Shown in pieces: positions 1,537 through 51,892 of a stretch of 64,000 nt of DNA (positions within the stretch are counted from its first letter, which is position 1; every line of letters begins with the position of its first letter). The stretch is from the NCBI RefSeq assembly GCF_003334815.1, contig NZ_QOWO01000015.1; one strand, given 5' to 3'. A program made the translations under genes and the position numbers. The notes under the pieces are model-generated. The model did no database searches and had not been told where the DNA came from. It saw only the letters and a program-made list of their open reading frames with translations. The stretch comes from Escherichia coli. GTDB taxonomy: Bacteria > Pseudomonadota > Gammaproteobacteria > Enterobacterales > Enterobacteriaceae.

Positions 1537-2156
1537 CCGGTGTGTGCAATATACGAAAAAAAAGCCCGTACTTTCGTACGAGCTCTTCTTTAAATATGGC
1601 GGTGAGGGGGGGATTGACTCGCTTCGCTCGCCCTGCGGGCAGCCCGCTCACTGCGTTCACGGTCTGTCCAACTGGCTGTCGCCAGTTGTCGAACCCCGGT
1701 CGGGGCTTCTCATCCCCCCGGTGTGTGCAATATACGAAAAAAAAGCCCGTACTTTCGTACGAGCTCTTCTTTAAATATGGCGGTGAGGGGGGGATTGACT
1801 CGCTTCGCTCGCCCTGCGGGCAGCCCGCTCACTGCGTTCACGGTCTGTCCAACTGGCTGTCGCCAGTTGTCGAACCCCGGTCGGGGCTTCTCATCCCCCC
1901 GGTGTGTGCAATATACGAAAAAAAAGCCCGTACTTTCGTACGAGCTCTTCTTTAAATATGGCGGTGAGGGGGGGATTGACTCGCTTCGCTCGCCCTGCGG
2001 GCAGCCCGCTCACTGCGTTCACGGTCTGTCCAACTGGCTGTCGCCAGTTGTCGAACCCCGGTCGGGGCTTCTCATCCCCCCGGTGTGTGCAATATACGAA
2101 AAAAAAGCCCGTACTTTCGTACGAGCTCTTCTTTAAATATGGCGGTGAGGGGGGGA
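1537..2156. repeat. Tandem direct repeat array, 181-bp unit x about 3.4 copies, apparently identical copies, ending in the 3' end of serX
   Basis: Identical ORF translations restart at 1542, 1723, 1904 and 2085 (period 181); each unit contains tggcggtgaggggggatt (a copy of the tRNA-Ser 3' end) and the hairpin gcccgtactttcgtacgagc with an A/T run. Confidence 0.9.
2096..2139 (-). terminator. Rho-independent terminator of serX (hairpin plus T-run on the minus strand); the same hairpin recurs in each 181-bp repeat unit
   Basis: Minus strand reads gagctcgtacgaaagtacgggc followed by tttttttt immediately 3' of the tRNA. Confidence 0.6.
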
Positions 2157-7771: not shown

Positions 7772-8525
7772 GATGAAACCCCGCTTTTTTTATTGATCGC
7801 ACACCTGACAGCTGCCTCTAAAATAGAAGCACCAGAAGTACTGACAGATGTTGCACTGCTGTGTGTAGTAATAAATCAGCCCTAAATGGGTAAAATATAA
7901 AACTAATGGATTACATCTGATTTCAATCTAGCCATTACAAATCTTAAATCAAGTGTTAAACATGTAACTAAATGTAACTCGTTATATTAAAATGTTAACT
8001 TTAAGGTTTTATTAAGTTTAGAAATGATAGAAAAGTTGTACATTTGGTTTTTATTGCACAATTTTAAAAAATCATACAAATGGTGATAACTTACTAATAA
8101 TGCATATAAAAAATATTTCGGTGTAGTCCTTTCGTCATGTAAAACGTTCTTGTTTTTTCTCCACACCTCCGTGGACAATTTTTTACTGCAAAAAGACGAG
8201 GTTTGTCACGGCTTGTGCGCAAGACATATCGCAGCAATCAGCGACGGGCAAGAAGAATGACTGTCTGGTGCTTTTTGATAGCGGAAAACGGAGATTTAAA
8301 AGAAAACAAAATATTTTTTTGCGTAGATAACAGCGTATTTACGTGGGTTTTAATACTTTGGTATGAACTAAAAAAGAAAAATACAACGCGCGGGTGAGTT
8401 ATTAAAAATATTTCCGCAGACATACTTTCCATCGTAACGCAGCGTTAACAAAATACAGGTTGCGTTAACAACCAAGTTGAAATGATTTAATTTCTTAAAT
8501 GTACGACCAGGTCCAGGGTGACAAC
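7772..8525. promoter_or_regulatory. Divergent csgD/csgB intergenic control region (long, AT-rich; contains the csgDEFG and csgBAC promoters and the csgD 5' UTR)
   Basis: 754-bp non-coding AT-rich gap between divergent csgD and csgB; known from the literature as a multi-regulator hub. Confidence 0.8.
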
Positions 8526-8981
8526 ATGAAAAACAAATTGTTATTTATGATGTTAACAATACTGGGTGCGCCTGGGATTGCAGCCGCAGCAGGTTATGAT
8601 TTAGCTAATTCAGAATATAACTTCGCGGTAAATGAATTGAGTAAGTCTTCATTTAATCAGGCAGCCATAATTGGTCAAGCTGGGACTAATAATAGTGCTC
8701 AGTTACGGCAGGGAGGCTCAAAACTTTTGGCGGTTGTTGCGCAAGAAGGTAGTAGCAACCGGGCAAAGATTGACCAGACAGGAGATTATAACCTTGCATA
8801 TATTGATCAGGCGGGCAGTGCCAACGATGCCAGTATTTCGCAAGGTGCTTATGGTAATACTGCGATGATTATCCAGAAAGGTTCTGGTAATAAAGCAAAT
8901 ATTACACAGTATGGTACTCAAAAAACGGCAATTGTAGTGCAGAGACAGTCGCAAATGGCTATTCGCGTGACACAACGTTAA
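8526..8981 (+). CDS. csgB: Minor curlin / nucleator CsgB, 151 aa
   Basis: ORF 8499-8981; ATG at 8526 gives MKNKLLFMMLTILGAPGIAAA... with imperfect amyloid repeats. Confidence 0.95.
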   Translation: MKNKLLFMMLTILGAPGIAAAAGYDLANSEYNFAVNELSKSSFNQAAIIGQAGTNNSAQLRQGGSKLLAVVAQEGSSNRAKIDQTGDYNLAYIDQAGSANDASISQGAYGNTAMIIQKGSGNKANITQYGTQKTAIVVQRQSQMAIRVTQR

Positions 8982-9021
8982 TTTCCATTCGACTTTTAAA
9001 TCAATCCGATGGGGGTTTTAC

Positions 9022-9477
9022 ATGAAACTTTTAAAAGTAGCAGCAATTGCAGCAATCGTATTCTCCGGTAGCGCTCTGGCAGGTGTTGTTCCTCAGTACG
9101 GCGGCGGCGGTAACCACGGTGGTGGCGGTAATAATAGCGGCCCAAATTCTGAGCTGAACATTTACCAGTACGGTGGCGGTAACTCTGCACTTGCTCTGCA
9201 AACTGATGCCCGTAACTCTGACTTGACTATTACCCAGCATGGCGGCGGTAATGGTGCAGATGTTGGTCAGGGCTCAGATGACAGCTCAATCGATCTGACC
9301 CAACGTGGCTTCGGTAACAGCGCTACTCTTGATCAGTGGAACGGCAAAAATTCTGAAATGACGGTTAAACAGTTCGGTGGTGGCAACGGTGCTGCAGTTG
9401 ACCAGACTGCATCTAACTCCTCCGTCAACGTGACTCAGGTTGGCTTTGGTAACAACGCGACCGCTCATCAGTACTAA
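9022..9477 (+). CDS. csgA: Major curlin subunit CsgA, 151 aa
   Basis: Translation MKLLKVAAIAAIVFSGSALAGVVPQYGGGGNHGGGGNNSGPNSELNIYQYGGGNSALALQ... with five imperfect repeats. Confidence 0.97.
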   Translation: MKLLKVAAIAAIVFSGSALAGVVPQYGGGGNHGGGGNNSGPNSELNIYQYGGGNSALALQTDARNSDLTITQHGGGNGADVGQGSDDSSIDLTQRGFGNSATLDQWNGKNSEMTVKQFGGGNGAAVDQTASNSSVNVTQVGFGNNATAHQY

Positions 9478-17991: not shown

Positions 17992-18090
17992 GCCTGATGC
18001 GCTACGCTTATCAGGCCTACATCGTTCCTGCAATTTATTGATTTTGCAAGACTTTGTGGGTCGGATAAGGCGTTCACGCCGCATCCGGCA
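17992..18090. repeat. BIME/RIP-type element: two REP palindromes flanking a central motif
   Basis: gcctgatgcgctacgcttatcaggcctac ... caatttattgattttgcaag ... ggtcggataaggcgttcacgccgcatccggca. Confidence 0.8.
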
Positions 18091-25530: not shown

Positions 25531-25817
25531 CATGGCCCCCTAATTCGTGTTACTAGACAACGTTATTCGAGGTTCAATGCGTTTTTATCTGAAGCAACTT
25601 CAGTATACCAATAAGTAAGGGTATTCACCGAATTTTTAAAGGGGGAAACAGATAAATTTCTGCTTTTAAGATTTATATGAACAATAAAACAGCATGTCAT
25701 TCATATTTTTTTAGCATATTGTGCAATTATTTTGAGGAAGTGTAGAAATTTTGTACTCAAAATTCGTAAGTAAAATAAAAAAGCCGGGGCGACCCGGCAA
25801 AAAAAAATCACTGCATA

Positions 25818-27183: not shown

Positions 27184-27234
27184 TAATCTCTATGCTCCGG
27201 CTGAAGGGATGTTTTTGCCGGACACAAAGGATAA

Positions 27235-48943: not shown

Positions 48944-49304
48944 CGTAACTTACTCATTATTCTTACATTGACGACTAAGCTGCGGGCAAAGTAACGCCTT
49001 TCCGGGTGTGAACCGATGGCCTCGTGTCTAGTCGCGTCGCCAACCTCACGGTTATCGTCAGCTCAAAGAGGCGCAGAGTGTCGGTTGCCCGTTTTTCATG
49101 CGGAAAAACAGCGCAATTATCAAAGAAACAGACTGGGTATTACTCTCCAGAAATATTTCCATCTACCGGTAAGGACTGCAACCCGCAGCCCGCTAACTGC
49201 CTGAAAGATCAATACGTCTTACGCCATTGCTGCGTGGATGATCGGTCGGGCAAAATGGGTTATTCCGTAAAATTTCTTGTTTTAACAAGGATGGACACGG
49301 AAAC
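48944..49304 (-). promoter_or_regulatory. Long rne 5' untranslated leader (autoregulatory)
   Basis: Non-coding region upstream of the rne ATG; extent taken from the known 361-nt leader, not determined from the sequence. Confidence 0.55.
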
Positions 49305-50586: not shown

Positions 50587-51172
50587 CTATCCCATCAGCG
50601 GGTTTTTCCCTTCCCGACGTAACATCTGACACAGCGCGATTAGCGGTAAACCAACCAGCGTGTTAGGATCACGCCCCTCTAAACGCTCAAACAGCGTAAT
50701 GCCAAATCCTTCACTCTTAAAGCTACCCGCGCAGTGCAGGGGATGCTCTTTACGCACGTAATTATCAATCTCCGCCTCGCTCAGGTGACGGAAATGGACG
50801 TCAAAAGGCTCCACTTCTGTTTGCAGATGCCCATTCGCCGAATTAAACAACGCCAGTCCAGTAATAGAAGGTGACGATATTGCCGCTGGCTTTGCGTAAT
50901 TGCAGACGGGCATTTTCTTCCGTTAACGGTTTACCGGTGATTTCGCCATCAAGAACACATACCTGGTCTGAACCAATAATTAAATGATCCGGATAACGTG
51001 ACGCCAGAGATTGCGCTTTTTCTTGTGCCAGTCGAAGCACCAACTGTCGCGGTGATTCGTCGCTGCGTGGGGTTTCGTCGACCTCTGGTGCTGCACATTC
51101 AAAAGAGATTTGTAGTTTTTCCAGAAGAGCGCGACGCCATGGCGAGGTGGAGGCTAAAATAAGTTTAGGCAT
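50587..51172 (-). pseudogene. yceF: Maf-family nucleotide pyrophosphatase yceF interrupted by an apparent +1 frameshift (586 bp instead of 585)
   Basis: Two overlapping minus-strand ORFs (50843-51211 and 50587-50913) in different frames together span one Maf-like protein; the frame switches at ttctattactgg near 50861-50866. Confidence 0.75.
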
Positions 51173-51179
51173 ATTTTTT

Positions 51180-51330
51180 TCCATCAGATATAGCGTATTG
51201 ATGATAGCCATTTTAAACTATGCGCTTCGTTTTGCAGGTTGATGTTTGTTATCAGCACTGAACGAAAATAAAGCAGTAACCCGCAATGTGTGCGAATTAT
51301 TGGCAAAAGGCAACCACAGGCTGCCTTTTT
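51180..51330 (+). ncRNA. sraB: Candidate SraB small RNA in the yceF-yceD intergenic region; boundaries approximate
   Basis: 198-bp non-coding gap; terminator-like aggctgcctttttc at about 51315-51330; identity rests on the known location of sraB, not on a structure I could verify. Confidence 0.3.
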
Positions 51331-51332
51331 CT

Positions 51333-51892
<560 letters not shown>

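Follow-up and report, generated by a model that had tools for sequence, protein, structure and literature searches.

The analyzed stretch of Escherichia coli DNA (64 kb; hereafter the window) carries a yceF locus on its minus strand, followed on one side by the convergently oriented gene rluC and on the other by the divergent yceD-rpmF-plsX-fab cluster. The following features were distinguished at the locus:

50587-51172, minus strand: yceF locus, 586 nt, encoding a 7-methyl-GTP pyrophosphatase of the Maf family (YceF subfamily), read here as a frameshifted pseudogene
50843-51211, minus strand: upstream open reading frame (ORF) of 122 aa, beginning at an in-frame ATG (51211) upstream of the native start
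50843-51172, minus strand: truncated frame from the native start, comprising YceF residues 1-103 and six aberrant residues (YWTGVV), with the stop codon TAA at 50843-50845
50587-50913, minus strand: +1-frame ORF of 108 codons, comprising 17 out-of-frame residues followed by native residues 104-194
50863-50864: site of a 1-bp insertion (one A:T pair duplicated), between codon 103 (Tyr) and codon 104 (Thr)
51113, minus strand: synonymous single-nucleotide polymorphism (SNP) in yceF codon 20 (CTG>CTA, Leu20), found only in the window and in one other assembly (L006, see below)
51166-51334, plus strand: SraB small RNA (Rfam RF00077, 210.6 bits), in the yceF-yceD intergenic region

The locus shares 99.7% nucleotide sequence identity over 681 nt with yceF of E. 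coli MG1655 and likewise with many other strains, this being the value of the best genome matches to a 681-nt yceF query among complete RefSeq E. coli genomes. The alignment with MG1655 (681 vs. 680 nt) contains two differences in all, i.e., one inserted T and the synonymous SNP. When the additional base is removed, the predicted product is identical to K-12 YceF (WP_001125202.1; NTPPB_ECOLI, P0A729) and to the protein of PDB entry 4JHC, which together with 4LU1 represents the solved YceF structures. This restored protein matches profile positions 1-185 of TIGR00172 (maf) with 249.5 bits, well above the cut-off of 117.15, and thus belongs to the Maf family. The profile is divided between the two fragments: the N-terminal one covers positions 1-104 (136.5 bits) and the C-terminal ORF positions 104-185 (99.7 bits, by itself below the cut-off), while PF02545 matches both yceF ORFs called on contigs of the Logan collection. 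In a tblastn search, residues 1-103 of K-12 YceF were located in frame -1, while frame -2 contained residues 104-194 at 100% identity; the same search revealed no second copy of yceF within the 64-kb window, so that a duplicate gene was rejected as a candidate.

An initial annotation, made from the nucleotide sequence only, had described two minus-strand ORFs in different frames that overlap by about 70 bp and together encode one Maf-like protein, the product of yceF. The ORF listing returns the same coordinates (50843-51211 and 50587-50913) with an overlap of 71 nt, and the tblastn and profile matches bear out both the identity of the gene and its division between the two frames. The 122-aa ORF merely opens further upstream, at ATG 51211, the native start of yceF being the ATG at 51172. 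Translation of 50587-51172 in the native frame encounters a stop at codon 110 and yields a 109-residue product, hence the locus contains no uninterrupted ORF of approximately 194 codons encoding the full fold. The +1-frame ORF lacks the native start and offers potential starts only, namely ATG 50913 and the TTG of Leu108.

Alignments to MG1655 and WG5 place the insertion in an AA doublet (50863-50864) of the plus strand, where GTA-TAG has become GTAATAG. On the coding strand TAT|ACT reads TAT-T-ACT, with one extra T, which makes yceF 586 nt long instead of 585. The site is a T changed into TT within CTATAC, and no homopolymer or simple-sequence repeat tract is present there. The position of the inserted base, the restored junction (NIVTFYTGLALF) and the length of 586 vs. 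585 bp had all been given correctly in the initial annotation, as the alignment, the restored protein and the profile match agree. A compensating second indel in yceF was considered and rejected, because the alignment with MG1655 contains only one gap.

The consequences of the lesion can be read against the known structure and biochemistry of YceF. The Maf signature comprises S10-R13-E33-K52-D69-K81 and the YceF subfamily motif W12-Q70-E154, the full fold includes a sheet of seven strands and, toward the C terminus, a dimer interface (residues 155-193), and mutagenesis together with structural data assigns both the base pocket and this interface to the C-terminal region (Tchigvintsev et al., 2013; PMC3899018). 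Translated from ATG 51172, the locus shows all six signature residues (S10, R13, E33, K52, D69, and K81) upstream of the frameshift. W12 and Q70 are also encoded in the N-terminal frame, whereas the codon for E154 lies past the premature stop and is read in the +1 frame only; the DNA still encodes the motif W12-Q70-E154, but standard translation does not place it on one polypeptide. The truncated product lacks residues 104-194, to which E154, the helix of the guanine pocket, a portion of the sheet and the 155-193 dimer interface belong. Since 47% of the fold is missing, including the remaining strands, the E154 base pocket and the dimer interface, the fragment would probably be inactive or unstable.

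A REP-like sequence separates yceF from rluC. Since no further gene follows yceF ahead of the convergent rluC, the lesion is not expected to be polar. The SraB small RNA, a known feature of this region, lies antisense to the 5' leader of yceF and to the 7 nt that open the gene, and is untouched by the frameshift. Neither a promoter nor a terminator of yceF was identified, the scan counts around the locus being no better than those for shuffled sequence. Four further Rfam matches above the gathering score (48968-49304, 27184-27233, 7827-7918, and 18013-18055, all on the minus strand), listed as the rne 5' UTR element, the PyrC leader, the ES056 small RNA and the ES036 (CssrF) small RNA, are all expected for this region of E. 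coli. At 1536-2158 the window contains an RtT-type 181-nt tandem repeat beside a tRNA gene, present in 3.4 copies compared with 4.4 in MG1655, within which Rfam recognizes three RtT units (1597-2095, minus strand). The csgA/csgB-csgD region (7877-9116) is intact, as in K-12, whereas WG5, otherwise the closest genome, has an ISEc35 insertion truncating csgA.

Among E. coli genomes the lesion is absent almost everywhere. An 81-nt query centered on the insertion matched 5,425 of the 5,426 complete RefSeq E. coli genomes, and the insertion was found in none of these 5,425: the best identity was at most 98.8% in every genome, so that each differs at one or more positions, and for the top matches the gap is that difference. 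Among the matches listed, yceF is annotated as an intact coding sequence. Intact orthologues are thus the norm in the species, and the gene is disrupted relative to them, as befits a pseudogene. A 30-mer spanning the insertion gave no match in JGI metagenome contigs, which argues that the allele is rare. It is already present in public databases, where it is annotated as a short "7-methyl-GTP pyrophosphatase": the exact product of the truncated 122-aa ORF is on record in NCBI (CAM9194660.1) and Logan and maps to six contigs of 20-113 kb.

The identical insertion occurs in several independent genomes, namely in the Logan assemblies of the runs SRR3823859 (L006), SRR8723274 (L007), and SRR11281015 (L008). 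In all three the genes around yceF are intact, and none of the three is identical to the window. Assembly L006 has two of the SNPs that set the window apart from the reference genomes, 41150A and 51113T, together with two SNPs of its own; L007 has neither of them and carries three other SNPs, while L008 lacks 51113T. The flanking SNPs of the three assemblies and the window are nested, and a single origin of the insertion requires no homoplasy; the SNP at 51113 appears from this pattern to have arisen later than the insertion. The runs are probably independent of one another, as judged from the SNP differences and the wide spacing of the accession numbers, on which this assessment rests because run metadata were not found. 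With three SRA-run assemblies and the NCBI record, the lesion is reproducible and heritable, as is to be expected of a pseudogene.

A second 1-bp insertion in yceF was observed on 16 short Logan contigs of several haplotypes (L009-L014: ERR10497802, SRR25684933, ERR10499058, and others). It is located at codons 98/99, where GGCAAT-ATCG has become GGCAATAATCG, and its product (...GNNRHLLYWTGVV) terminates at the same premature TAA. This insertion may stem from noisy or mixed data and need not be a true allele; its reality is doubtful because the contigs are fragmentary and some of them carry extra homopolymer deletions or indels.

The quality of the window itself was assessed by comparison with WG5 and MG1655, to each of which it is approximately 99.98% identical over the whole 64 kb. 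Relative to both references the window has one private indel, which is the yceF insertion, and eight private SNPs, of which four are synonymous, three are missense and one is intergenic. The missense SNPs are:

18868: mdtG, Arg>Cys
24591: solA, Tyr>His
41150: flgI, Gln>Lys

L006 also carries the flgI substitution. The two other indels of the window are homopolymer length differences, each relative to one reference only. They lie at 25637 and 25807, in the counterpart of the K-12 dinI-bssS intergenic region (T5 vs. T4 in WG5, and A9 vs. A8 in MG1655), and each length agrees with that of the other reference. An indel-rich assembly of low quality was therefore rejected, only one private indel being present in 64 kb.

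These data bear on whether the extra base is real. The initial annotation had left open a sequencing or assembly error, in which case yceF of the strain would actually be intact. Single-base indels are the commonest class of assembly error, and an insertion seen in no complete RefSeq genome fits such an origin; nevertheless we consider an error very unlikely. Three assemblies of other read sets, which differ in their flanking SNPs, have the same insertion, and an NCBI protein record agrees with it; the site (T to TT) is no homopolymer run, and no other private indel is found in the window. Taken together, the clean window, the public record of the product and the independent assemblies argue that the inserted base is not an error, and the nested SNP pattern fits a single origin followed by later SNPs, unlike errors arising independently in separate read sets. 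The alternative of genuine pseudogenization, also offered by the initial annotation, is supported by the occurrence of the same insertion in at least three other read-set assemblies; of its description as "strain-specific", the pseudogenization stands, while the restriction to one strain has to be widened to a small sublineage.

A real insertion could still leave some YceF function. The N-terminal fragment and a separately started C-terminal fragment (from the TTG or from ATG 50913) might form a two-piece Maf enzyme, or rare +1 slippage at GUU-UAA might yield a full-length variant; either event would account for the persistence of an allele that has not decayed further. Several features are compatible with this scenario: (i) all six signature residues are retained in the N-terminal fragment, (ii) the +1 frame is still open for the C-terminal 91 residues, at 100% identity, (iii) the TTG at Leu108 overlaps the upstream TAA, and on Logan contigs an 87-aa ORF is called from this codon, (iv) a weak GGAAG is located 3 nt upstream of ATG 50913, and (v) the allele is old enough to have been followed by later SNPs, yet yceF shows no further decay. 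The lack of decay, however, is equally expected of a young pseudogene, and residues 104-107, which belong to a hydrophobic segment of the core, are lost or substituted at the break. No recognized +1 slippery motif (of the CUU-UGA-C type) and no upstream Shine-Dalgarno stimulator accompany the frameshift: inspection of 50843-50870 (TAT TAC TGG ACT GGC GTT GTT TAA) revealed neither a +1 slippery or hungry-codon site nor an SD-like stimulator. The arrangement is absent from the 5,425 genomes and hence is not a conserved design, and we regard persisting function by either route as highly improbable. The notion that the two frames constitute a regulated switch, through conserved programmed recoding or phase variation, draws on the existence of two overlapping frames and nothing more, and its probability is next to nil. 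The indel is a TT doublet outside any simple-sequence tract, as opposed to the repeat tract of a phase-variable contingency locus, and no run of A or T is long enough for transcriptional slippage. Both mechanisms were rejected because no slippery site or homopolymer tract is present; programmed frameshifting, which the initial annotation had already ranked as least likely, was rejected also because none of the 5,425 complete genomes shares the arrangement. Alignment of orthologues had been named beforehand as a check that could overturn the annotation, and the two-frame arrangement proved not to be conserved.

We therefore favor, with a probability of roughly 0.9, the view that this yceF is a genuine loss-of-function allele, inherited vertically within a rare, phylogroup-A-like sublineage of E. 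coli. According to this explanation, a spontaneous +1 insertion would have duplicated one T between codons 103 and 104 in an ancestor of the sublineage and would then have been transmitted vertically. Over the 20 kb of flanking sequence compared, a single origin seems preferable to recurrent mutation at the site. Ribosomes initiating at the native ATG (51172) would produce the 109-residue fragment, stopping at the TAA at 50843-50845; this fragment would keep the six signature residues, which serve catalysis and triphosphate binding, and lose 47% of the fold, and with it, presumably, enzymatic activity. YceF is a house-cleaning enzyme, and the gene is reportedly non-essential in K-12 (Keio collection). 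Because the protein is non-essential and yceF is a single gene placed against the convergent rluC, the lesion is likely to be nearly neutral, with little fitness cost and no polarity, and the low cost would let the allele persist.

For annotation purposes, the locus should be described as one frameshifted yceF pseudogene and not as two Maf-like genes. The insertion (k-mer CACCTTCTATTACTGGACTGG) cleanly marks a small sublineage of E. coli. Its carriers would be natural yceF-null isolates, usable to probe the phenotype of lost m7GTP house-cleaning, which is a minor question for specialists.

Compared with K-12 YceF (P0A729), the DNA of the locus is the same over 681 nt except for the synonymous SNP and the insertion, and the context is shared (rluC convergent, yceD-rpmF-plsX divergent, and SraB antisense to the 5' end). 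The K-12 gene is intact, whereas here the frame is broken after codon 103 and standard translation yields no full-length 194-aa enzyme. The locus resembles prfB (RF2) in that two overlapping frames encode one protein and a +1 shift restores it; unlike prfB, it has no conserved frameshift, no CUU-UGA-C slippery/stop site and no upstream Shine-Dalgarno stimulator. The closest likeness in kind is to young frameshift pseudogenes of E. coli and Shigella, from which the locus shows no difference of kind; the literature searched did not yield the allele itself. As in those pseudogenes, one inactivating indel interrupts a gene that is otherwise undecayed, few close relatives carry the allele, and the gene is intact across the species. 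The yceF pseudogene is thus a young, ordinary, and lineage-restricted one, and nothing new in kind.
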